A stretch of 15,721 bases of DNA from Candidatus Thalassarchaeaceae archaeon (GCA_030747675.1 JASLKH010000046.1:1-15721), one strand, 5' to 3'. Counted from the stretch's first letter, positions 2 to 11,791 are shown. Notes: generated by a model not told the origin, from the letters alone. Numbers and translations: made by a program.

Positions 2-3000
2 TTCATCCAAAATTCTGCACGAATAACTCTCAGCGACATTCAGATGCAAGATTTAGTTTCAGAAATTGATTCTAGAAATCCAGATATGAATATTATTGGA
101 GAATTGGATGCTCACAAGATTGACGTTTCAGTTTCTTCAAACACTGGAGGCACACTACAGGTGTCTGGTTTGTCGATTCCCTATCGGTATGATGCACATA
201 TTGACGGTGATGCTGCCCTGCCGATAATTGCAGCAATAAACTCCCAATTGTCACAAATTTCATCCTTAAATGGAATGAAAGAAGTCCCAATTCCAGTTGT
301 AATGGAAAATCCTGGAAAATTACTAATTTGGGATTATGGATTACAAACACTAGGGTCACCATTACCTACAGGTATGACAATGACAAACCAAACCGATACA
401 CTGGTCGCAGGTAATGATTGGTATGAATTTAACAGCAGCTTTGATTTGTCCAATATCGGAATTAACGATGCTGCTGCACAGTTTACCAGTGAGGGGTGGT
501 CTTCAGTTTTCACTTTAGGGGGGAGCGAATGGACTCGTTCTCTTCATTGTTCTTTAGTTAGTGATAGTTGCACTGCAGACCAAGGAATTATTGTCGATGA
601 GTTTTCTTATCAATTCACTAATTCGATGGTTGAGTTTTTCCATAGGATTCAGATTTCTTCAATTTGGCCTGATGAAGCCGCATTGATTGCTTCAAGTTCA
701 ATCGACATGAATGGGCCTGCTTCACAGCCAAATCAAATGAGGTTTGGTTCAGGTTGGTCAATGGGTGTAGAACAGGACATAGATGTTGTGGATTGGCACC
801 TTTCATTCATGAATGGAGCAGAATCCACTTGGGATGCTCTGTACTTTGATCCTGCAAAACCCGGTATTGTTGAGGTGGAGTTAGCGTTTGAGAATTTGGA
901 AGATTCTCCACGCTCCTCAACATTCAGCGTCTCTTTGTATGTGGATGGCGCACTTACTGATACTACTCAATCACTAAACAATGGTGTCGCAACTCTAATG
1001 TTTACTCCTAATGCATTATCATCTCAAGTTGATTTACAAATTGGGGTAACCGGCTTGTATGGTCAAGATGTTAATTGGAAAGTACCCAAAAATGCCACAT
1101 TCTTGATAGATGATTTAGCACCGGTTTTGATTTCCACAAATGTAGCACCTTTGGACCATAGGAGTACAGAATTACCATTGCAATTGAGCTTTGAAATAGG
1201 TGACAGACCAGTTTTACCACGACATTCCATTCTACATGTAGAAACTTCTTGGCAAGGTGAGGAATCAATACAATTGGAACAGCCAGCAAATATGAATGGC
1301 TTCCAAGGCACATATTCTACAATTTTTGATATCAGTGATGCAGAATTAGGAGATACAATGTCTGGTTGGCTGGAAGTTTTCGACCCTGCTGGTCACGCAT
1401 TACCAGATTCAGGTACTGAAGAAAACCCATTGTTCATTATCAGCTTTGGACCCGACGGTGCTCCGATAATTATGGAGGATGGACTCGGTTGGACTCATGG
1501 GGATAACTGGCTACATCCTGGGCAGAATTACAGTATGCAAATCCCTATTCGTGATGCCAATGGTTACGGGGATATCGAAAGCGTATCGATTGACCTTTCA
1601 TCAGATTCCAGTGAGAATCTAATTATTGATTGGAATTCTCAATCAGGTTGCTCTTCGTCCATTCCCTCAATAATAATCCAAGATTGTTTCATTGTTGGCG
1701 ATTCACATCATTTCGATCCAATGTTCACACTTGAGGTAGTCATGTCATTTGGCTGGGATTTCAACCCAGACACCTCTTTGGAGAGAAGCATTAGAATCAC
1801 TGCAAGCGATGATTCCGGACAATCACATCGAAGTGAACTTGACTCAGTCTGGCGATATTCTAGTGAGATGGAAATTGATCTTAATTCAGCAGGTTTCACT
1901 CAATCATCAGCATTCGTAGCGCCTGGCCAAACTAGTATACTCAATGCTGACATAGTCTGGACTAGAGGTGGCCAATTAGTCAATACAATTGTAGATGTAT
2001 CTGCATCAGTTGATGGTGTCGAACAATTTGGATTATCACAAAATGGAATGGTTAATCTTACACTAGTTGCACCTAACTCAACTGGAATTCACCCAATTAA
2101 ATTGGATTTAATCAATTTACCATCTGGGGCAATTGATAGAACTGATACTGAGCAAATTGTTGCATGGATGGTTGTTGACAGCAATCAGCCTCGAGTACTG
2201 CAATTATTGTCTCCAGATCCTCTTGATTTGGTTCAAGAAAGGGATTGGAAAAATTTGAGATTTGAAGTAATGGTAAATGAAACTGAAGGACTTAATCTTG
2301 ATTCATTGCGAATGAATTGGCTAATCGTTCCGCATGGCATGGCGATTCCAGAATTGGCACTCCTTGGTGGAAATGTCAGTATGGAAATCATCGCAGGAAC
2401 TGGTGCAGGAAATTCAATACCTTTGTCTGCAACTCTAGATGTAGATTCAATAGTTCCTGAGGTCAGCCGGCAGAATTCTTGGGACCTCTGGGTTTGGGTT
2501 GAGGGCGAAGATTTGGCTGGGCAGCAAATAGTTTCACAATTCAATAGCCGAACTTCTCCACTGGCGATTCTACAGTTAGCAAACCGTGATGCAGACCTTC
2601 GCTTGGATTCTGAAGGAATCATAATTGAAAGCGAATATCCCAAAACAGGTGATGCCATTGTGGTCAATGTAACAGTCTACAACGATGGACAAGTCGATGG
2701 ATTGACAAGTGTTCGAGTTGAGGTAATTGAAGATGGGGACAAGCGCCGCCTTATCGAAATCGTCAACATTGAAGTTCCAGCAAACTCATACGCCTCTTTT
2801 GAAGCAAAATGGGTTCCCGAGGATGAAGGTGCATCTTGGATTGAGATTTCAACACCAGATGGAAAGTTTGCAAGAACTAATCCTATTCAGGTTGAGAGTG
2901 GTGAATCTACTTTCGTTATAGAAAGTCTAGAGGGTGCTAGTGGAGCTATGCTCACAGGATTTGCAGTAATCACCTTTGCAATGATTGGATTGTTAGGTTT

Positions 3001-3061
3001 CTTGGTGGTCTCTGGAAAGAAGCCTCAGGATGATGATTTTGAGGATAGCGAGTTCGCTTGA
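2..3061 (+). CDS. Large membrane-anchored surface/secreted protein, 5'-partial (>1005 aa); beta-rich Ig-like repeats, probable C-terminal CARDB-like domain, C-terminal TM helix
   Basis: The frame is open from base 2 (FIQNSARITLSDIQMQ...), so the true start lies outside the window. The protein is acidic and Ser/Thr-rich. It has a CARDB-like segment (YPKTGDAIVVNVTVYNDG...VPANSYASFEAKW), then hydrophobic AMLTGFAVITFAMIGLLGFLVVSG, KK and a short acidic tail. Confidence 0.85.
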   Translation, partial: FIQNSARITLSDIQMQDLVSEIDSRNPDMNIIGELDAHKIDVSVSSNTGGTLQVSGLSIPYRYDAHIDGDAALPIIAAINSQLSQISSLNGMKEVPIPVVMENPGKLLIWDYGLQTLGSPLPTGMTMTNQTDTLVAGNDWYEFNSSFDLSNIGINDAAAQFTSEGWSSVFTLGGSEWTRSLHCSLVSDSCTADQGIIVDEFSYQFTNSMVEFFHRIQISSIWPDEAALIASSSIDMNGPASQPNQMRFGSGWSMGVEQDIDVVDWHLSFMNGAESTWDALYFDPAKPGIVEVELAFENLEDSPRSSTFSVSLYVDGALTDTTQSLNNGVATLMFTPNALSSQVDLQIGVTGLYGQDVNWKVPKNATFLIDDLAPVLISTNVAPLDHRSTELPLQLSFEIGDRPVLPRHSILHVETSWQGEESIQLEQPANMNGFQGTYSTIFDISDAELGDTMSGWLEVFDPAGHALPDSGTEENPLFIISFGPDGAPIIMEDGLGWTHGDNWLHPGQNYSMQIPIRDANGYGDIESVSIDLSSDSSENLIIDWNSQSGCSSSIPSIIIQDCFIVGDSHHFDPMFTLEVVMSFGWDFNPDTSLERSIRITASDDSGQSHRSELDSVWRYSSEMEIDLNSAGFTQSSAFVAPGQTSILNADIVWTRGGQLVNTIVDVSASVDGVEQFGLSQNGMVNLTLVAPNSTGIHPIKLDLINLPSGAIDRTDTEQIVAWMVVDSNQPRVLQLLSPDPLDLVQERDWKNLRFEVMVNETEGLNLDSLRMNWLIVPHGMAIPELALLGGNVSMEIIAGTGAGNSIPLSATLDVDSIVPEVSRQNSWDLWVWVEGEDLAGQQIVSQFNSRTSPLAILQLANRDADLRLDSEGIIIESEYPKTGDAIVVNVTVYNDGQVDGLTSVRVEVIEDGDKRRLIEIVNIEVPANSYASFEAKWVPEDEGASWIEISTPDGKFARTNPIQVESGESTFVIESLEGASGAMLTGFAVITFAMIGLLGFLVVSGKKPQDDDFEDSEFA

Positions 3062-3442: not shown

Positions 3443-6292
3443 TTAATCCAGAATCGCATCAACAGCCTTCATATTTTCATCTGTCAGTACAACGCCTTCA
3501 CCGAAATCTATGAACCCTTCTTCGCCCTTGATTTTTCGCCGTACAGTGTGGTCCAGCGTTATACAAGCGGGTAGTAAGAATACGCTTGTTAGGAAAGCAA
3601 ATCCGATTAGCAACATCATCAAAATGAAGAAATTGACCAATCCAGGGAATGCTACGAAGAACCCGGCACCCAATCCTGCTACAGTAGTGGCAGTCGTTTC
3701 GAAGATAGTCTGCCCAGTACTTTCAACAGCTCGTGAAATTCCAACAGCGGTTTCACCTTCCTCCTGAATTCGGTGCATTACGTGTATTGCATCGTCAACA
3801 CCTATTCCGAAAACAATTGTACCTATCATCGCAGTGAAGATATTTACATTCACATCTCCAGAACTCATCAGTAATGGCTGCCAAATTATGATAGTTGCAA
3901 CCGGTATCATTGTGAGGATTCCAATTCTGGCGGATCTGAATACGAAGCACAATATTATGGTAAGAATGAGAAGAGTCAGTAATGTAGTATGGCTCTGCGT
4001 TTCATGGATTCCCTCATTGATGTCAAGGCTGACTGGTAGACCACCTGTCAATGGTGAAACTCTGATTCCTGACTCCTCCATAGGCTCGCCTAGCATATCA
4101 TCGATGTCATCACGAAGCATGCTGGCGTTGTCTAGATTCATGTAAGGCTGAGTTACATAGACTAGTGCTTTGGTTCCATCAACATTGGTTAACATCCATT
4201 GCACTTCTTTGGATAATGTGTCATAGGCGACGTTTACCATGTCCTTTCGTAGATGCTTTCTTCCTTCACCATCGCTTGAAGTAGCATCAAGTAAAACCCA
4301 AGCTGCGCAATCTGGACTATTGGATTCCCAGCATTCCTCATGTAGTAGACCCCAAAGAGTTCCATCATACAGAGTCACTCCCGTGGTTGGTTCTCCAATA
4401 ACTACAGGAACAGCCTCAAGGAATGTAATCAAACTCGTGGTATTGGTGTAAGGAACTTCAGTAATTTTGTTTTCTAGAGCGTCCATTGCGTCTAACACTT
4501 CAAGCGATCGAATCTTCATGTCTTGATTGTTAATATCTTCATCATTGATATGTTGTGAAGCATCGAAAATGAATAGAGATGTTTGTCCACCAGAGAATGT
4601 ATTTGAATATTCAACCATGGCTTCCATGGAAGGAATATTGTCAGGAGTTTGGTCAGAACCAGTAATTGGTTTGTCTAATTCGTCGAGGTTACTAACTCCA
4701 GCGAGGGTTATTGCACCCGCAAGCAGAAGAACAACTGCGAAATTCTTGACAGGGAATCTCGAAATCGAACCCCACATTGGAGGGTTAGTTCGTTTGTTGA
4801 ATCTAAGTAACCACGATAATACGGGAACCAGAATCATAGAGAATACCAATGTCGCCATTATTCCTGCAACTAGTGTCATTCCGACTGAACGAATTGGGAT
4901 AATCGATACGATATTTGGAAGAATTAGTACCGAGAAACCAATGATTGTAGTTACAGCAGAGACCAATACTGCCACTCCAGTAGTCCTGGACATTTCCATG
5001 ACACAAGAGCGATAGAAATCAGGGTCCCACATGTCAGGGACTTCGTTCGGAACAAGCCCTTTTCGCCTTCTACTTTCATTTTCTTCAACAGCGGCGTCTA
5101 TACGTTTCCGCCGCACTTCTTCGATACGGTTGACCATGTGTAACGCATAATCAACCCCTAGTCCGATTAAAATCGGGAATGTTGCAATAATCATCGGAGT
5201 TAACGTCATTTCGAATAATACGGTTGCCCCAAATGTAACCGCTAAGGCCATCACAATCGGTGTTCCTGAAATGATTACAACTTTCCAGGAACGGTGTAAT
5301 AGAGTGATGATCAAGACCGTAAGGAATAGTGATATGGGCATCATGTTGAGTAAATCTAGATAAATTGCATCGGAAACATCTTCGAGGATTTTGGATAGCC
5401 CCGTTTGTGTCATATTTAGTTGATTTATACTATATTGAGTAGGCCTGTTATCTTCTTCAATGACAGTATCAATATGTGAGAAGAATTCCTTGTAATCACT
5501 CCATACTCCTGTTTCATTAATTTGGTTTGAAGAAATCATTCCTACCAAAACAGCAGTAGTGTCCCAAATACCATCACCATTAGTATCCTTAGCTAAGCCC
5601 TCCAGTGACCCGTTTGACTGATTTACGATTTCGTCGATTCTCTGTTGTTCATCAGGAATTGCGTATAATCCTCCACTAAAGCCAGGGGCTTGGCTAGCAG
5701 TTCCACAATCTACTAGTTGTGCTGTCAACCTCTCTCCAGGGTTTTCACACATCGCACTGTTGAATCTCCCATCACTAGAATTGATCTCTTTGATAATCTG
5801 AGCAATGGAAATAATCCACAATACACCATCATTCTTCCCGTGATCTTCTTTGTCCCAGTCTAATCCTCGTTTAATCTGATTATCTCCGCGATTTTCATCA
5901 TCACCCTCTATCCAAGATATTTCATGTAAAACCGAGACACTTGTGATATTGTAATCCGCTCCGAAAATGTCAGGGTCTTCTGCATTGGGCGTTTTAATGT
6001 AAATGAATGCCACATCTGTGGACCATTCTTCCCTTACCTCTAACAATAGGTCGGTAGATTCTGCTCCTTCTGGAAGGAATACTTCCACATCGTCAACAAT
6101 TTGATCTTGGAAGTTAGTACCAATGTTTCCAAGCCATAGGGACATTATTGCTAACAAAATGAATGTAGTTTTTGGCTGAGCTAAGACTTGAGAATATGCT
6201 GTATCTAGCCCCGAATCTACTTTCTCGCGAACGAGTTGGGAGTACTCTGCAAGTTTCTCTTTTGCATCTCCCATGAGTGGTGGGAAGAGCAT
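3443..6292 (-). CDS. MMPL/RND-superfamily transporter (two internal repeats, about 12 TM helices); alternative start at 6274
   Basis: The protein has two halves, each with one TM, a large extracytoplasmic domain and five TMs. It carries TM4/TM10-type motifs GLGVDYALH and GIGVDDAIH and TM-helix motifs SAVTT and TTATT. Confidence 0.92.
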   Translation of the reverse strand: MLFPPLMGDAKEKLAEYSQLVREKVDSGLDTAYSQVLAQPKTTFILLAIMSLWLGNIGTNFQDQIVDDVEVFLPEGAESTDLLLEVREEWSTDVAFIYIKTPNAEDPDIFGADYNITSVSVLHEISWIEGDDENRGDNQIKRGLDWDKEDHGKNDGVLWIISIAQIIKEINSSDGRFNSAMCENPGERLTAQLVDCGTASQAPGFSGGLYAIPDEQQRIDEIVNQSNGSLEGLAKDTNGDGIWDTTAVLVGMISSNQINETGVWSDYKEFFSHIDTVIEEDNRPTQYSINQLNMTQTGLSKILEDVSDAIYLDLLNMMPISLFLTVLIITLLHRSWKVVIISGTPIVMALAVTFGATVLFEMTLTPMIIATFPILIGLGVDYALHMVNRIEEVRRKRIDAAVEENESRRRKGLVPNEVPDMWDPDFYRSCVMEMSRTTGVAVLVSAVTTIIGFSVLILPNIVSIIPIRSVGMTLVAGIMATLVFSMILVPVLSWLLRFNKRTNPPMWGSISRFPVKNFAVVLLLAGAITLAGVSNLDELDKPITGSDQTPDNIPSMEAMVEYSNTFSGGQTSLFIFDASQHINDEDINNQDMKIRSLEVLDAMDALENKITEVPYTNTTSLITFLEAVPVVIGEPTTGVTLYDGTLWGLLHEECWESNSPDCAAWVLLDATSSDGEGRKHLRKDMVNVAYDTLSKEVQWMLTNVDGTKALVYVTQPYMNLDNASMLRDDIDDMLGEPMEESGIRVSPLTGGLPVSLDINEGIHETQSHTTLLTLLILTIILCFVFRSARIGILTMIPVATIIIWQPLLMSSGDVNVNIFTAMIGTIVFGIGVDDAIHVMHRIQEEGETAVGISRAVESTGQTIFETTATTVAGLGAGFFVAFPGLVNFFILMMLLIGFAFLTSVFLLPACITLDHTVRRKIKGEEGFIDFGEGVVLTDENMKAVDAILD

Positions 6293-6327
6293 TCAACCCA
6301 TGAAGGCTATGCCGTAAAGATTGTGAA

Positions 6328-7260
6328 TCAGGCCAAACCGAATTCCCTAATCAGTAAGTGGCGTAAGAAATTTCTAGCTGCCTGTAAAACTAGTCCTGTT
6401 GCCATCATTGCAAGGCCTAAGACTCCTATCCACACGGCAGTCAGGCCAGGCCCTACCAGGTAATCAACCGAATCCGAGAGTCCATTAACGGCATTAAGGC
6501 CCATGGCTGCACCTGTGGCGAACAATCCAAATCCAGGGAGTCCTAATACCAATAACGGTTTTTTCTGAGATAGTGAAAGCATTGCCCAGGCAAGAACTGT
6601 GAATCCGTGAGACAGTGCAGTAAAACTACTGCCCTTAGGCACATCATAGCGAATCAAAGTAGGAATTTCCTTGATTTTCAAGTCTTTTTCATGAGCATCT
6701 TCGAGCATTTCAAGTGACAATTCCATGCCTTCAGAATCAAACCTCAATCTCTCAATTGCTAATTTGGAGAACGCTCTAAATCCCGATTGTGTGTCTTGAA
6801 TACCAAGGTCACTGGAAAGATTTGAAGCCGCTGTAATCACTTTAATTCCCAATCGGCGATATGCCGGCATGTCTTCACTACCGCCGCCATCAACGAATCT
6901 ACTTCCAATGACGAAATCTGCATCTCCATCTAAAATAGGCTGGAGGATTTTAGGGATGTCATTAGTTTCATGTTGCCCGTCGCTATCTAGTACTATCAAG
7001 CAGTCAGCATCCATTTCTCTTGCTTTAGCAAACAATGATTTCAGAGCACCGCCATATCCACGGTTTACTCTATGTCTGTGAACTAATGCTCCACAGGCTT
7101 CAGCAATTCTTGCGCTTGAATCCGATGAACCATCATCAACACAAATTACTTCATCGACATGTTCGAGAACATTGGTAATCACTGTTCCAATTGTCTCTTC
7201 TTCGTTGTACATGGGTAGGCCTGCTACGATGCGTAGCGGTTGACCATCGGCCTTCTCCAT
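6328..7260 (-). CDS. Family 2 glycosyltransferase, DPM1/polyprenol-phosphate glycosyltransferase-like, with two C-terminal TM helices (310 aa)
   Basis: Motifs include LPMYNEEETI, CVDDGSSD, NRGYGGAL, DSDGQH, DFVIGSRF and DTQSGFRAF. The start is moved from 7380 to ATG 7260 because the upstream 40 codons cover a hairpin and a TATA-like box. Confidence 0.92.
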   Translation of the reverse strand: MEKADGQPLRIVAGLPMYNEEETIGTVITNVLEHVDEVICVDDGSSDSSARIAEACGALVHRHRVNRGYGGALKSLFAKAREMDADCLIVLDSDGQHETNDIPKILQPILDGDADFVIGSRFVDGGGSEDMPAYRRLGIKVITAASNLSSDLGIQDTQSGFRAFSKLAIERLRFDSEGMELSLEMLEDAHEKDLKIKEIPTLIRYDVPKGSSFTALSHGFTVLAWAMLSLSQKKPLLVLGLPGFGLFATGAAMGLNAVNGLSDSVDYLVGPGLTAVWIGVLGLAMMATGLVLQAARNFLRHLLIREFGLA

Positions 7261-7282
7261 GAAATAACGCGTTTCTGGCTCC

Positions 7283-7290
7283 AATATATG
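7283..7290 (-). promoter_or_regulatory. Putative TATA box for the GT2-MMPL unit (leaderless mRNA)
   Basis: Minus-strand CATATATT is centred about 26 nt upstream of ATG 7260. Confidence 0.45.
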
Positions 7291-7330
7291 TGATTCGGCT
7301 ACATTACAGGTCAAATATCGGAAAATAGGT

Positions 7331-7362
7331 GCCAGCCCGCCCTCCGAAAAGGGCGGACTGGC
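7331..7362 (-). terminator. Strong GC-rich RNA hairpin; terminator-like or stabilising element
   Basis: The minus strand reads GCCAGUCCGCCCUU-UUCG-GAGGGCGGGCUGGC, a 14-bp stem with two G-U pairs and a UUCG loop. It lies 10 nt after the stop at 7373 and is followed by ACCUAUUUUC. Confidence 0.55.
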
Positions 7363-7372
7363 TAATATTAGA

Positions 7373-7627
7373 TTAATCATTTAGGTGATTGATCGAAGTT
7401 ACGGCTCGGGAACCGTCTATGATTCCTGCTAGTGCGTTCAAACTTACAACTAATTGTACGTATGTCTGTCCATCGCTGGTAACATATGTGGCACAATCTT
7501 GGAAAGAATTTGTGTTTATCGAAAGCTTAACAGCTCTACCTGCGTTGGATTTTCTGACAAATCCAACTAGGGTGCTGTTTGTGCTTTGCTCGTATTCTGG
7601 CTCTGTGTTTTTTTCTGCTTTTGGCAT
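7373..7627 (-). CDS. Small hypothetical protein (84 aa from ATG 7627; TTG 7636 is an alternative start)
   Basis: SD-like AGGAG lies 9 nt before ATG 7627. The core looks globular (LVGFVRKSNAGRAVKLSIN...DGQTYVQLVVSLNALAGIIDG). It resembles, from memory, an uncharacterised Thermoplasmatota family; this is unverified. Confidence 0.8.
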   Translation of the reverse strand: MPKAEKNTEPEYEQSTNSTLVGFVRKSNAGRAVKLSINTNSFQDCATYVTSDGQTYVQLVVSLNALAGIIDGSRAVTSINHLND

Positions 7628-7784: not shown

Positions 7785-8735
7785 ATGTTCATGCGAGCGC
7801 TAGTTACCGGGGGTGCAGGCTTCATCGGTTCACACCTAGTAGACAGGTTAGTTTCACGAGGCGATGAAGTCTTAGTGGTGGATAACTTGTCCTCGGGAGT
7901 ACTTGAATTTATACAGGACCATATCGATTCAGGTGCCGTTGATTTCCATGAGGTCGACCTCAAAGATTTAGAATCTCTAAAGCCACTGTTGAATGGCGTA
8001 GACATGGTCTACCACTTGGCTGCAAACCCCGATATTCGACTTGGAACGAGAATTACTGATACGGATCTTAAGGAAGGAACCATTGCTACATACAATGTTC
8101 TGGAATCTATGCGGTTAGCTAATGTGGAAAAGATTGCTTTCGCCTCTTCATCAGTAGTTTATGGTGAAAATGCGCCAATGCCGACCCCTGAAAATCATGG
8201 ACCTTGCCTTCCAATCTCTCTTTATGGAGCATCTAAACAAGCTGGAGAGGGTTTGATTGGCTCTTGGGTTGGAACATTTGGACTGCAAGCATGGATATTC
8301 AGATTTGCAAACATCATTGGAGAGCGAGGTACCCATGGTGTCATTTTCGATTTCATTCACAAATTAAAAGCAGATCCAAGCCGTTTGGAAGTTCTTGGGA
8401 ATGGTTTGCAAGAAAAGTCATACATGGAAGTAGGAGATTGTGTTGACGCAATTCTTCATGTAATTGCCAAAACTGATGACAGGATTAATCTTTATAACCT
8501 CGGTTCTAACGATACCTGCAGTGTAAGGAATATTGCAGCAATTGTCGTAAAGGAAACCGGATGTGAGGGTGCTAGTATCGAATATACTGGTGGTGACCGT
8601 GGTTGGGCAGGCGACATTCCAAAGGCAATGCTGGCGATAAATCGCCTCAAAGAACTCGGATTCAAGGTCAACTATGATAGCGAAGAAGCAGTGGCGCACA
8701 CTGCAAGGGTCCTAATCCAGGAGATTATGGGGTGA
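7785..8735 (+). CDS. NAD-dependent epimerase/dehydratase (extended SDR, UDP-glucose 4-epimerase-like); start 7785 or 7791
   Basis: Motifs include ALVTGGAGFIGSHL, HLAANPD, FASSSVVYGE, catalytic YGASK and RFANIIG. The substrate cannot be determined from sequence alone. Confidence 0.93.
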   Translation: MFMRALVTGGAGFIGSHLVDRLVSRGDEVLVVDNLSSGVLEFIQDHIDSGAVDFHEVDLKDLESLKPLLNGVDMVYHLAANPDIRLGTRITDTDLKEGTIATYNVLESMRLANVEKIAFASSSVVYGENAPMPTPENHGPCLPISLYGASKQAGEGLIGSWVGTFGLQAWIFRFANIIGERGTHGVIFDFIHKLKADPSRLEVLGNGLQEKSYMEVGDCVDAILHVIAKTDDRINLYNLGSNDTCSVRNIAAIVVKETGCEGASIEYTGGDRGWAGDIPKAMLAINRLKELGFKVNYDSEEAVAHTARVLIQEIMG

Positions 8736-8739
8736 AATT

Positions 8740-9390
8740 ATGATTCGAAGAAATATTTCAGATGAAGCCGGAGCACGTTCAGACGGATTAATGGTAGTGT
8801 CCCTAATTTTCATTGCAGCATTCACTTACATCGCTTTTACTACAAATCCTGTTTACACTGGAATTGGTGTTGGAGATAGAGTACCTGAACTTGAAGGGCA
8901 AATCTATGATGGAGGAACTTGGACTGATTTCAATTTAGAAGATAGTCTTGACCCTCTATGGGCTGAAGGAGATGGAGGGACCTGGTTTATGATTGAATTC
9001 ATGGATACTAACTGTGGTTACTGTCAACAGCAGGCTGCTGAAGAAATACCAAATCAACAAGCAAAATGGCTAGGTGATAATCCGCCTCGCTCAACACCTG
9101 ACAACGTCACGGTTGAGTTCTTGGCAGTGTCCATATCCTTGTGGGACTCTGGGACTGATGGTAAATCGTATGGAAGAGACGTAATACAAGATTTCCGAAA
9201 TAATAACGGCCACAATTTCCCATACATGGACATGCAAGATAACTCTCATCAAGATGATTGGGGAGGATTTGGGACACCAACATATTTCTTGGTTGCTCCA
9301 AATGGAATCATTGAGTATGTGAATTTAGAAGCCGATGCAGGTTATACTGTATGGGATGCAATGGATGAAAAAATCCCAAGAGGTGAGTAA
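8740..9390 (+). CDS. Membrane-anchored thioredoxin-fold thiol-disulfide oxidoreductase (TlpA/redoxin-like, CGYC)
   Basis: It has an N-terminal TM (LMVVSLIFIAAFTYIAF), GDRVPEL, EFMDTNCGYC and cis-Pro loop GTPTYFLVAPNG. SD GGGGTGA overlaps the upstream stop. Confidence 0.88.
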   Translation: MIRRNISDEAGARSDGLMVVSLIFIAAFTYIAFTTNPVYTGIGVGDRVPELEGQIYDGGTWTDFNLEDSLDPLWAEGDGGTWFMIEFMDTNCGYCQQQAAEEIPNQQAKWLGDNPPRSTPDNVTVEFLAVSISLWDSGTDGKSYGRDVIQDFRNNNGHNFPYMDMQDNSHQDDWGGFGTPTYFLVAPNGIIEYVNLEADAGYTVWDAMDEKIPRGE

Positions 9391-9391
9391 G

Positions 9392-10087
9392 ATGGTGGCC
9401 GGACTAGAATGTTTTGATCTCAGTTTGCTCCCACATCTAGCGATTTTTGCTCTTGGAGTAGCAATGCTTACTCCGTTAGGTGAAAGTTTGTTTTTACCAG
9501 CACTAAAATGGGCTTCACTCGAGACTAAATTGGGGAGAACATTTGCAGGTCTTCTGATGATTTCTTTTAGCGGCTTCACAGTTTCAGCTCACACCCTGTG
9601 GATGCATAACAAGTCACAGGAGATGGGCGGTGGATCATTTTGTTCAGCTGGAGAGGTTTGTGATTGCGCCAGTGTCATTGGTAACAATGATTGGAACACA
9701 ATGCCATTTCTTGACTTGCCTTGGGGGCTTCTAGGAATGTTAGCGTTTGCTATGTTCATGTGGCTGATAATCTCAATGGCCAAGGAACCAACAGCATCTT
9801 GGGTTTTGACACATATAAAAATCGGAACCAACTTTGGAATATTGGGTATTGGTGTAATTCTTTACTTGATGTATGCGGAGTATGAAATTGGAAAGATTTG
9901 CCAGTTCTGTACCACCGCGCACATTGCCCATATTGCTGCAACAATCGGTTTCTTCCGTTTGTCGAATATGTATGGTTCTAGCGATTGGAATGTGGCTGGA
10001 AACACAAAGTTCGTTGATGTGGCTGCTAAAGAACGCAGAAGGCGTGGCGGCTACGTCGCTCCAAAGCAGGCATCTGAGGAGGAATGA
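9392..10087 (+). CDS. Vitamin K epoxide reductase (VKOR) family protein (231 aa)
   Basis: Loop cysteines (FCSAGEVCDCASV), TM2 LPWGLLG, and a CQFC redox motif at the start of the last TM are present. ATG 9392 follows SD GAGGTGA. The ORF-track start at 9335 overlaps the upstream gene. Confidence 0.9.
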   Translation: MVAGLECFDLSLLPHLAIFALGVAMLTPLGESLFLPALKWASLETKLGRTFAGLLMISFSGFTVSAHTLWMHNKSQEMGGGSFCSAGEVCDCASVIGNNDWNTMPFLDLPWGLLGMLAFAMFMWLIISMAKEPTASWVLTHIKIGTNFGILGIGVILYLMYAEYEIGKICQFCTTAHIAHIAATIGFFRLSNMYGSSDWNVAGNTKFVDVAAKERRRRGGYVAPKQASEEE

Positions 10088-10090
10088 TTC

Positions 10091-10612
10091 CTGAACGAAA
10101 ACGGTTGGTGGGGAATCTTCACCATCGTCTGCTTAGTTTCATTACTTGGTTTGATGGAGTATCAAGGACTGATCAATCTAATCGATGACAGTAAATCAAC
10201 TGAATCACCATTGTTTAACACCGCAGATGAGATGCATCCTTTGGGCGAAGAATGCCTAACAACACATGATGTGGCAATGCATTTCCACCCTTATCTTACA
10301 ATAATCATTGATGATGTAGAATTTCCAATTCCAGAGGATACTGGCATAGATACAGAGACTTGCCCAGGAGCTATGCACATGACACATACACATGATGCGT
10401 CCGGTAAGATTCATGTTGAAGGGCATCAAGTTGTTGATGTGCCCTTAGAGGTGTTTTTCGATGTATGGGGCAAACATTTCGATGAAACTGGAATCTTTGA
10501 GTATCGCGATGGAACTGTGGTAATGACAGTCGATGGAGTTGTCAGCAATGAATATCAGAACCTATTGTTGGCAGATGGACAAAATATCGTCATCAAATAC
10601 ACATCGAATTAA
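10091..10612 (+). CDS. Membrane-anchored His-rich hypothetical protein (HxH...HTHDxSGxIHVE); start uncertain (CTG 10091 proposed, TTG 10151 in ORF track)
   Basis: In-frame hydrophobic WWGIFTIVCLVSLLGL lies upstream of the track start. GGAGG is 8 nt before CTG 10091. The soluble domain has 10 His and 2 Cys. Confidence 0.8.
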   Translation: MNENGWWGIFTIVCLVSLLGLMEYQGLINLIDDSKSTESPLFNTADEMHPLGEECLTTHDVAMHFHPYLTIIIDDVEFPIPEDTGIDTETCPGAMHMTHTHDASGKIHVEGHQVVDVPLEVFFDVWGKHFDETGIFEYRDGTVVMTVDGVVSNEYQNLLLADGQNIVIKYTSN

Positions 10613-10878
10613 GGTGCGTATATTCCTTCGAAATATAGTGCGTCAGTGTTTGTAGTTACAGGTTCTATTCGATGCACAGTTACATCAACTCTCTCACTAG
10701 TTTGATACATTTTTCTTAGCTCACTCAACAAGTGATGATGAACATCACTAACATCGCTCGCACTGATCATCGAAAGGTGGCGGTTTGTCTCTCCTCCAAC
10801 TTCAACGGTATATTCTACCATCCAAGACTTAACACCTTGGTTAACCCAGTCTTCGGAAGCATCGTGTGTCGGTTCCAT
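10609..10878 (-). CDS. Hypothetical protein (89 aa)
   Basis: The ATG ORF fills an otherwise empty gap. Its stop overlaps the convergent gene's stop (TTAA). TATA-like TTTGATAA lies about 25 nt upstream. No family was recognised. Confidence 0.7.
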   Translation of the reverse strand: MEPTHDASEDWVNQGVKSWMVEYTVEVGGETNRHLSMISASDVSDVHHHLLSELRKMYQTSERVDVTVHRIEPVTTNTDALYFEGIYAP

Positions 10879-10987
10879 GGTATTACATTAGTCTCTAACC
10901 TTATCAAAGGTTTGGTCAAATGTGCAATTTTTTACCGTAATTCTACAGTTTTCCGACAATTCAGTGTTTTTTCACAGACATGAAAAC

Positions 10988-11791
10988 TCATTCTTCTTCC
11001 GAATTAAGGGATTTTTTCTCAGGAATAAATACCACTAAACCACCCAGTAGAATACAAAATGCAACAATTTGTAGTAGTTCGTTGCTGGAATTATTTTCAT
11101 CTTGAATATTTGAAATTTCAACCACCCCATATGGAGAGCCTCCTTCTACGGGTTCGTGAATCATAATCAGCGACCATAATTCTGGCAACTGCAAATTACC
11201 ATATTCGGAAACATTCCCGTTTGAATCGATAACTTTCATTCCCACCAAAACTCTGTCCCGAACATCCTCGCCTGGATTGTCAACATCTGCAGGAACTTCT
11301 TTGTCATGCTCAACGACCATTAGAGTGATTTGTCCGTATTCAGGAGTGGGTATTTGTACCTCGCCATCCATGACAATCATTGCCATTTCGTCTGGAGTGC
11401 CACGTAAATTTTCCTGTGAAAGAATTCGTTGCTGAACATCACTCCAAGCATCATAACCTTCTGCAGTTTTCACTCCGTCAACGAAGAATGTCGGAGTTCC
11501 GTATGCTGAATCATCTGTCATTTTTTGATATTCTATCCTCGCAAGACTAGCCTCATTTTCGAATGCGTCATCCACATGTAATCCTACAATTGCCGTACGT
11601 GTACCATGAGACTTGGCTACAATCGCTAGTTCGGGGTCAATTTCTGCACAAGACGGACACCATATCGCAGTTCTCTCCTCTACCAGAACTGTCCTCTTCA
11701 ATTGGTGTTCTTCAACATCACCTTCGGCCACCGCTGCAGTTGAAGAAGTCAGGCATAGTACCATGACGAGTGCTGCTAGAAGTGGCCTCAT
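10988..11791 (-). CDS. Secreted, C-terminally anchored thioredoxin-fold protein (WCPSC; Omp28-like N-domain), 267 aa
   Basis: It has a signal peptide (MRPLLAALVMVLCLTSSTAAVA), VLVEERTAIWCPSC, cis-Pro loop YGTPTFFVDG and a C-terminal TM (LLQIVAFCILLGGLVVFI). Confidence 0.85.
   Translation of the reverse strand: MRPLLAALVMVLCLTSSTAAVAEGDVEEHQLKRTVLVEERTAIWCPSCAEIDPELAIVAKSHGTRTAIVGLHVDDAFENEASLARIEYQKMTDDSAYGTPTFFVDGVKTAEGYDAWSDVQQRILSQENLRGTPDEMAMIVMDGEVQIPTPEYGQITLMVVEHDKEVPADVDNPGEDVRDRVLVGMKVIDSNGNVSEYGNLQLPELWSLIMIHEPVEGGSPYGVVEISNIQDENNSSNELLQIVAFCILLGGLVVFIPEKKSLNSEEE

Follow-up and report, generated by a model that had tools for sequence, protein, structure and literature searches.

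We analyzed a 15,721-bp stretch of archaeal DNA (the window; JASLKH010000046.1 of assembly GCA_030747675.1) that contains a compact set of genes predicted to specify an extracytoplasmic disulfide-forming system (Table 1). A sugar epimerase gene is followed by genes for a membrane-anchored thioredoxin-fold protein (hereafter the thioredoxin), a membrane protein of the vitamin K epoxide reductase (VKOR) family, and an anchored His-rich protein. Two more genes, one for an 89-amino-acid protein and one for a second thioredoxin-fold protein (the CPSC protein), converge on these from the other strand. An earlier note on this DNA had identified the epimerase, the thioredoxin with its CGYC motif, and the VKOR, and family and profile matches bear out all three. 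The note had also described four genes spaced by 1-4 nt, with Shine-Dalgarno (SD) sequences lying over the upstream stops. This is correct for the first three genes: the spacer between the epimerase and thioredoxin genes is 4 nt (8736-8739), that between the thioredoxin and VKOR genes is 1 nt (9391), and SD-like sequences, GGGGTGA (8729-8735) and GAGGTGA (9380-9386), overlap or abut the preceding stops. It is not correct for the fourth, the His-rich gene, as described below.

Table 1. Features of the operon and of the genes that converge on it.
Feature	Coordinates	Strand	Remarks
NAD-dependent sugar epimerase/dehydratase	7785..8735	+	First gene of the operon; PF01370, E 1e-46
Membrane-anchored thioredoxin-fold protein, CGYC, 216 amino acids	8740..9390	+	Open reading frame listing, family scans
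VKOR-family membrane quinone reductase (predicted)	9392..10087	+	PF07884, E 2e-13
Junction TGA-TTC-CTG (VKOR stop, one codon, CTG)	10085..10093	+	
Anchored His-rich protein, one transmembrane helix plus ectodomain	10091..10612	+	Frame open to 10612
89-amino-acid acidic protein, no transmembrane helix, no Cys	10609..10878	-	Converges on the operon
Exported two-domain thioredoxin-fold protein, CPSC	10988..11791	-	Converging gene

The source of the window is a Poseidoniaceae (Marine Group IIa) archaeon. The window is one contig (C46) of a 1.68-Mb bin, and a second copy of the whole region is present on two other contigs of that bin (C38 and C58), both of which resemble the bin's own genus. The TruD encoded in the window is 74% identical to that of a genome from another family (family f3, genus g6) and only 55% identical to the copies from the bin's own genus, including the bin's second TruD. 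The duplicated region and the TruD identities therefore indicate that C46 was mis-binned. Judged by the His-rich protein, the nearest genomes are G176 (97% identical) and G136 (91%).

The thioredoxin has an Arg-rich N-terminal stretch, a single transmembrane segment (residues 16-34), and then an acidic ectodomain, and is predicted to have a type II topology. Because Arg residues precede the transmembrane segment and the acidic domain follows it, we place the CxxC outside the cytoplasm. The active site (C92 and C95 of CGYC) and the cis-Pro (P180, in a GTPT motif) are invariant among orthologues. Family scans gave weak matches to AhpC-TSA and Thioredoxin_2 and no match to PF01323 (DSBA), and the inserted helical domain of that family was not found. 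The single sequence had no match at E 1 among solved structures. A profile built from 33 orthologues, run against the same structures, matched ResA, StoA, and TlpA-like proteins (best, 3c71, a ResA, E 3e-11, profile positions 64-200). DsbE-like and SCO1-like proteins are also among its close structural relatives, and DsbA from Staphylococcus aureus was matched around the active site only. Because the profile matches ResA, StoA, and TlpA-like structures, we assign the scaffold to a class of reductants.

The active site suggests a different class. Across the order (Poseidoniales) the CxxC reads CGYC, CGHC, CPYC, CPHC, CPFC, CSYC, or CSAC, and CxPC was found in no orthologue. Sites of the CxPC type are those of ResA, CcmG, TlpA, and thioredoxin. 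DsbC of Escherichia coli has CGYC, DsbA has CPHC, and protein disulfide isomerase (PDI) has CGHC; the dipeptides GY, GH, PY, PH, PF, SY, and SA resemble those in the sites of DsbC, PDI, DsbG, DsbA, and DsbL. By profile and motif, the protein appears to combine a ResA/TlpA fold with an active site of the DsbA/DsbC type, and we propose that it is the DsbA-equivalent partner of the VKOR.

The VKOR matched PF07884 with 51.1 bits (cut-off 27.5), and with 52.3 bits in the genome search. Among 16 Poseidoniales sequences, the loop pair C84/C92 (spacing x7) is invariant and the CQFC motif (C170/C173), with which the last core transmembrane segment begins, is nearly so. A third loop Cys, C90, is peculiar to this lineage and is not conserved. 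Judged by hydropathy and charge counts, the protein has five hydrophobic segments, one of them an extra N-terminal segment, and an Arg-rich tail (KERRRR). Lys and Arg are concentrated in the loop ahead of the core, in the loop that joins core helices 2 and 3, and in the tail, and because of this distribution we place the loop Cys residues and the CxxC outside, which is where they face in solved VKORs. The charge distribution of the two proteins thus predicts the extracytoplasmic location supposed in the earlier note.

We found that the thioredoxin and VKOR genes are adjacent in all 14 of 14 diverse loci, in every Poseidoniales locus inspected, and in every genus-g6 locus that reaches the thioredoxin gene. 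Their spacing elsewhere is tight or overlapping, and in several loci the two open reading frames overlap. The VKOR had a match in 38 of 41 relatives. The scan of contigs for homologous loci yielded almost only Poseidoniales, and a Pfam search covered the rest of the phylum. Phylum-wide, 56 of 201 genomes yielded a VKOR; nearly all Poseidoniales have one, and its occurrence in other lineages is patchy. In other Thermoplasmatota, on a rough reading of 10 GC-rich loci, VKOR tends to adjoin an open reading frame that contains a CxxC (CSHC, CGHC, CPHC, or CPYC), and several of these neighbors, in the same rough reading, have an Arg-rich N terminus followed by a hydrophobic stretch. These loci confirm that the thioredoxin and VKOR genes form an old and closely spaced pair that is translationally coupled and has been kept throughout Poseidoniales.

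Two loci in these searches stand apart. In a genome of family f2 (G027), a VKOR homologue (L026:6757-7368) lacks the CxxC and may be degenerate or repurposed; the upstream thioredoxin gene, with a CPFC motif, is kept. A locus filed under an alphaproteobacterial metagenome-assembled genome of Yoonia sp. (L123) is of the Poseidoniales type, with a VKOR 41% identical to that of the window. Its placement there is probably a binning error.

We searched five Poseidoniaceae genomes, two of them at least 96% complete, for other components of thiol-disulfide exchange. Each of the five has one VKOR. No DsbB was found in them, and none had a match to Pfam DsbA (PF01323) above the cut-off. DsbD/CcdA (PF02683) was found in one of the five and was not found in the genome that is a single contig (96% complete). 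That is, no alternative partners turned up in the genomes searched. Two genes of the MqnA/MqnD family, for menaquinone synthesis by the futalosine pathway, are present in each of the five.

Exported proteins are biased toward even numbers of Cys residues. Open reading frames called in the 1.68-Mb bin were assigned to classes with simple hydropathy rules. The predicted exported proteins (those with an N-terminal hydrophobic segment and at most a C-terminal anchor) included 92 with an even number of Cys and 49 with an odd number, or 65% even (binomial p 3.7e-4), with counts of two and four predominating. In contrast, the predicted cytoplasmic proteins (no hydrophobic segment) included 350 with an even and 360 with an odd number, or 49% even (Fisher p 6e-4 for exported versus cytoplasmic). 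An even-Cys bias is a signature, in the literature, of organisms that oxidize exported cysteines, and the bias that the earlier note had proposed to test for is present here in the exported proteins and absent from the cytoplasmic ones.

We think it likely that the thioredoxin and VKOR make up an outward-facing disulfide-forming system for the exported proteins of Marine Group II archaea. At the outer face of the cytoplasmic membrane, the anchored thioredoxin would use its CGYC disulfide to oxidize Cys pairs in proteins that have just been exported. The VKOR would then re-oxidize the thioredoxin through the loop pair C84/C92 and the CQFC motif, and would hand the electrons to menaquinone. The identity, coupling, and conservation of the genes, the lack of alternative partners in the genomes searched, and the even-Cys bias are seen in the sequences; we infer the direction of electron flow, the choice of partner, and the orientation of the two proteins. 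The extracytoplasmic pair proposed in the earlier note thus gains from the coupling and conservation of the genes, the outward orientation predicted from charge, the oxidase-type CxxC, the menaquinone genes, the failure to find DsbB, DsbA, and (in most genomes) CcdA, and the even-Cys bias.

Several observations weigh against this interpretation. The scaffold of the thioredoxin is that of ResA, TlpA, and CcmG, which are normally reductants fed by CcdA/DsbD, and genes similar to ccmF and ccmC are present in all five genomes. Six residues past the second loop Cys, all Poseidoniales have Asn/Asp in place of the Ser/Thr conserved in the VKOR family, and the aromatic residue that follows is shifted by one position: the loop (9641-9694) reads C-x-S-V-I-G-N/D-x-x-W/Y as opposed to C-x-x-V-x-x-S/T-x-Y/W in the family, in a mapping made by eye and not by structural alignment. 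Other Thermoplasmatota VKORs retain the Ser. A profile of Poseidoniales VKORs found no solved VKOR at E 0.01. The orientation of the proteins comes from charge counts only. The even-Cys test is crude, both in the calling of open reading frames and in the use of hydropathy, and the bin used for it is mostly from the sister family, which carries an orthologous thioredoxin-VKOR pair.

It is possible that the thioredoxin is a reductant of the ResA/CcmG type that prevents oxidation of the CxxCH of apocytochrome c or of the Cys ligands of copper proteins, with the VKOR as a mere neighbor or a counter-balancing oxidant. This would fit the nearest structural relatives found by profile (ResA, StoA, DsbE-like, and SCO1-like proteins), the CcmF- and CcmC-like genes, and a distant member of the family of the His-rich protein that is fused to a Redoxin domain with a CcmG-like WCPTC motif. 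Yet the CcdA/DsbD needed to supply electrons was not found in four of the five genomes, the single-contig genome among them, and the order-wide lack of CxPC in the thioredoxin orthologues is not what is expected of such a protein. In addition, the ccm genes are located elsewhere, whereas the thioredoxin gene is translationally coupled to that of VKOR throughout the order. We consider a reductant role very unlikely.

A different question is how far the system extends beyond the pair. The earlier note had proposed a complete oxidative-folding module, with the His-rich protein as an extra metal-binding component and with a link to glycosylation through the epimerase. The gene order around the pair is MMPL, GT2, epimerase, thioredoxin, VKOR, (His-rich), 89-amino-acid protein, CPSC protein, RlmE, orf98, EF-1beta, TruD. 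The order from MMPL to TruD, housekeeping genes included, is collinear in both major families of Poseidoniales. Conservation of gene order, which the earlier note had called for, was indeed found order-wide, and it spans the whole 15 kb. Because the whole block is collinear, gene order says little about the epimerase, the CPSC gene, or glycosylation. It is plausible, with a likelihood we put a little short of even, that the thioredoxin-VKOR pair alone is functional as a unit and that the epimerase, His-rich, 89-amino-acid, and CPSC genes are neighbors through inherited order, with neither a wider module nor any tie to glycosylation. The collinear block is one reason to think so. In addition, the seven family-f1 loci inspected and one genus-g6 genome (G030) showed no His-rich gene at this position, and in other proteins the His-rich domain occurs in fusion with unrelated exported enzymes. 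Against a pair that stands alone, the spacer between the epimerase and thioredoxin genes is only 4 nt in the window and appears similarly tight in the f1 loci (judged from approximate tblastn ends). In 13 of 14 f3 genomes (first sample) and in 20 of 20 genus-g6 loci, moreover, the VKOR stop is overlapped or directly followed by the His-rich gene.

The epimerase is 66-80% identical across the order, and the thioredoxin gene is always directly downstream. Because the spacer is so tight, the two genes are taken to be co-transcribed. The epimerase is thus probably on the same transcript but not part of the chemistry, and we found nothing beyond co-transcription to connect the pair to glycosylation. 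The epimerase has GalE-like NCBIfam matches, all of them below the cut-off. Its start may be the ATG at 7791, because homologues align from residue 3.

The His-rich gene lies between the VKOR gene and that for the 89-amino-acid protein in those same 13 f3 genomes and 20 genus-g6 loci, and a match to it was found somewhere in the genome in 177 of 201 f3 genomes. It adjoins VKOR only in Poseidoniaceae, and was not found beside VKOR in the seven f1 loci inspected. This distribution, together with the fusions to unrelated exported enzymes, does not favor a central role for the protein in the proposed module. In G030, the genus-g6 relative whose TruD is closest to that of the window, an unrelated gene for a 400-amino-acid membrane protein on the opposite strand (L020:6643-7845, -) replaces the His-rich gene.

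The way in which the His-rich gene is started is unusual. The earlier note had treated the gene as simply spaced from, or overlapping, its neighbor. We found that the ATG that overlaps the VKOR stop (ATGA, with the ATG at 10084) is out of frame with the His-rich open reading frame. That frame is the VKOR frame, and it lies directly behind a single TGA (10085-10087). No ATG, GTG, or TTG precedes the membrane helix in this frame, and the first canonical start, TTG 10151 or ATG 10154, comes after the helix. A CTG at 10091 aligns with an ATG, TTG, GTG, or CTG in relatives, and GGAGG (10078-10082) is 8 nt upstream of it.

There are two layouts of this junction in genus g6. In layout A, the gene begins with an in-frame ATG that overlaps the VKOR stop, or with an ATG, TTG, or GTG two codons on. 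In layout B, found in the window and in seven other species (L027, L028, and L042-L046), there is one extra base: the ATG is out of frame (in five of the eight species it meets a stop after four codons) and the gene lies in the VKOR frame behind the TGA. The eight species with layout B form a single clade (support 89/93), with one change on the tree. Across this clade, the 22 codons after the TGA contain 222 synonymous and 106 non-synonymous differences in the His-rich frame, as opposed to 27/328 and 39/306 synonymous/non-synonymous differences in the other two frames. In the same region, 19 of 33 variable sites are third positions. These counts indicate that the 22 codons are under purifying selection. 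Because change is mostly synonymous, we conclude that the helix is translated and that the arrangement is neither an assembly error nor a pseudogene.

We modestly favor initiation at the CTG, or reinitiation after termination at the TGA three bases upstream, as the start of the His-rich protein. In either case the protein would begin at CTG 10091, with reinitiation the more probable route. The alternative is that the TGA is read through in the layout B clade to yield one VKOR-His-rich polypeptide of five or six transmembrane segments with a C-terminal metal-binding ectodomain. The shared frame with a single TGA between the two genes in eight species of one clade, the predominance of synonymous change after the TGA, and the lack of a canonical start ahead of the helix are all consistent with read-through, and the topology fits as well: a cytoplasmic tail, then a transmembrane segment, then an outside domain. 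Several features argue the other way. Sister species have their own ATG, or an ATG, TTG, or GTG aligned with CTG 10091; GGAGG is 8 nt ahead of the CTG; the two layouts differ by a single base that would lie in a spacer that is then untranslated; and there is no evident recoding signal. Read-through is therefore unlikely in our estimate. Less likely again is a broader notion, that VKOR is extended by read-through in this one Poseidoniaceae clade and that the His-rich beta-grasp module is, generally, an unrecognized metal-dependent partner of extracytoplasmic thiol-redox enzymes. If this were true, the coupling of the His-rich protein to VKOR, together with the CcmG-like Redoxin fusion, would link metal handling to archaeal surface disulfide chemistry.

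Three other explanations of the junction were considered and set aside. A frameshift from ATG 10084 is rejected, given that in five of the eight species its frame is only four codons long and that substitutions in this frame are mostly non-synonymous (39 synonymous, 306 non-synonymous). A sequencing error is rejected, given that the layout is identical in eight species-level genomes of one clade. An alternative code in which TGA is a sense codon is not supported: the epimerase gene ends at a TGA with the next gene out of frame, and TGA and TAA replace each other as the VKOR stop among relatives.

Whatever its start, the His-rich protein appears from the arrangement of the genes to be co-translated with VKOR in Poseidoniaceae. 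Its residues are numbered here from the codon after the TGA, and its ectodomain corresponds to 10220-10609. In an alignment of 48 sequences, H65, H67, H100, T101, H102, H109, and E111 are invariant (a signature of the form HxH...HTH...HxE), and C56, C92, H60, H97, and H130 are nearly so. The protein had no Pfam or NCBIfam match, and its sequence gave only chance-level matches among solved structures. An AlphaFold2 model (predicted local distance difference test score [pLDDT] 92.5) has one helix and a beta-grasp-like domain. A Foldseek search with this model found nothing below E 1e-3. With VIA-align, the best match was the DUF4430-like structure 3u7z (Z 6.8, root-mean-square deviation [rmsd] 2.6 A, 81 residues), and the beta domains of transcobalamin and other cobalamin carriers also matched (Z 6.0-6.7). 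We do not claim kinship to DUF4430 or transcobalamin, since Z values up to 6.8 are common among unrelated folds.

A profile of the His-rich domain alone found 2752 clusters at 50% identity, 1306 of them at E 1e-10. Family members occur in bacteria (Binatia) and in other archaea (Woesearchaeota), and those that were scanned gave no Pfam or NCBIfam match over this domain. Most are anchored proteins of 150-220 amino acids; others are fused to YHYH, subtilase, esterase, cyclophilin, nuclease, FG-GAP, or Calx-beta domains, and one to the Redoxin domain with WCPTC mentioned above. We tentatively suggest that the domain is a general extracytoplasmic metal-binding module. The protein beside VKOR is probably a metal-binding accessory or a client, although our confidence in this is low. 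Candidate roles, offered with the same reserve, are the buffering of metals near reactive thiols, service as a client of the pathway, and service as a cofactor-bearing partner.

The earlier note had also pointed to a second exported thioredoxin-fold gene that converges on the operon. We found this gene as described, and its product, a further exported thiol-disulfide protein, appears to be of the HBP35/DUF1223 type and not DsbA-like. Its start is placed at Met14 of the longest open reading frame (11791) because homologues are mostly 267 amino acids long. The protein is predicted to have a signal peptide, a thioredoxin domain, a beta-rich domain, and a C-terminal transmembrane anchor. Invariant residues include E38, T41, C45, C48, and P100; in the thioredoxin domain W-C-x-x-C-A and a cis-Pro are invariant, as are His, Arg, and Asp residues. 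The CxxC itself varies among orthologues (CPSC, CDSC, CDTC, CESC, CEVC, or CTSC). In a Foldseek search, both domains of an AlphaFold2 model (pLDDT 84) matched HBP35 (5y1a, E 3.6e-7, 246 columns) and 2axo (E 1.2e-6, 236 columns). A match to an Omp28-family NCBIfam model was weak (23.8 bits, far below the cut-off of 150) and agrees with the fold match to HBP35 and 2axo.

The remaining neighbors belong to the same order-wide collinear block. The 89-amino-acid protein had no family match in the Pfam and NCBIfam scans and has orthologues at the equivalent position in both families of the order; its gene and the 3' end of the His-rich gene overlap by 4 nt. Farther upstream are a gene for a 1005-amino-acid exported CARDB-containing protein with a C-terminal anchor (44-3061, +), and, on the other strand (3443-7380, -), genes for a GT2 glycosyltransferase and then an MMPL/RND transporter. 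Paired Cys residues had been noted in exported domains near the operon, and we found such pairs in the CARDB protein (C169/C176 and C536/C548) and in the His-rich ectodomain (C56/C92).

The Marine Group II system resembles several known systems in part. As with Rv2968c (a VKOR) and the DsbA-like Rv2969c of Mycobacterium tuberculosis, and with actinobacterial MdbA, the VKOR gene adjoins that for an exported CxxC protein of the thioredoxin fold. As in those bacterial systems, menaquinone is the likely acceptor, and VKOR replaces DsbB in genomes without DsbB. In contrast, the archaeal partner is of the ResA/TlpA type and has no DsbA helical domain, the VKOR loop lacks the conserved Ser/Thr, and the archaeal system is predicted from its genes. 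The VKOR of Synechococcus, which has a fused thioredoxin-like domain, and the plant protein LTO1 also have a plain, membrane-tethered thioredoxin-like partner. In these proteins the C-terminal domain is brought outside by a fifth transmembrane segment, and a VKOR-His-rich read-through product would have the same geometry. They differ from the archaeal system in that, in the latter, the thioredoxin is a separate upstream gene and the domain behind VKOR is a His-rich beta-grasp with no CxxC.

The thioredoxin is like ResA, CcmG, and TlpA in fold class, in its single N-terminal anchor, and in its predicted extracytoplasmic CxxC. It differs from them in having VKOR as a neighbor, in that CcdA was mostly not found, and in its sites of the DsbA/DsbC/PDI type. 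The CPSC protein shares the combination of a thioredoxin and a beta-rich domain with HBP35 of Porphyromonas gingivalis and the DUF1223-like 2axo, but sequence identity is ~15% and the archaeal protein has a C-terminal transmembrane anchor. Compared with 3u7z and the beta domain of transcobalamin, intrinsic factor, and haptocorrin, the His-rich domain is beta-grasp-like (Z 6.0-6.8, rmsd 2.6-4.1 A, 81-88 residues), with Z in a range common for unrelated folds.

Archaeal VKORs that can replace DsbB have already been described in earlier reports (PMC4555120; PMC13486548, PMC12453122). Those of Aeropyrum pernix are reported to support disulfide formation in E. coli (Hibender et al. 2017, cited in PMC13486548 and PMC12453122). 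These are archaeal homologues of VKOR; they come from Crenarchaeota, have a different architecture, and include an inward-facing paralogue. The view in the earlier note that no equivalent had been characterized in this lineage therefore holds for Marine Group II, in that we found no paper on Marine Group II that also mentions vitamin K epoxide reductase, but not for archaeal VKORs at large. By its sequence features, the Marine Group II system appears to be a variant, with a ResA-fold partner that has oxidase-type sites, an altered VKOR loop, and a coupled His-rich module in one family.

The His-rich domain defines an unnamed family of ~2750 clusters with an invariant five-His/Glu site, and the layout B gene, maintained by selection throughout its clade, offers a natural case in which CTG initiation, reinitiation, and read-through can be compared in archaea. 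Marine Group II, which are uncultured, are among the most abundant archaea of the surface ocean. Their way of life depends on the export of large surface and hydrolytic proteins that contain Cys, and a conserved VKOR pathway would account for the stabilization of these proteins.

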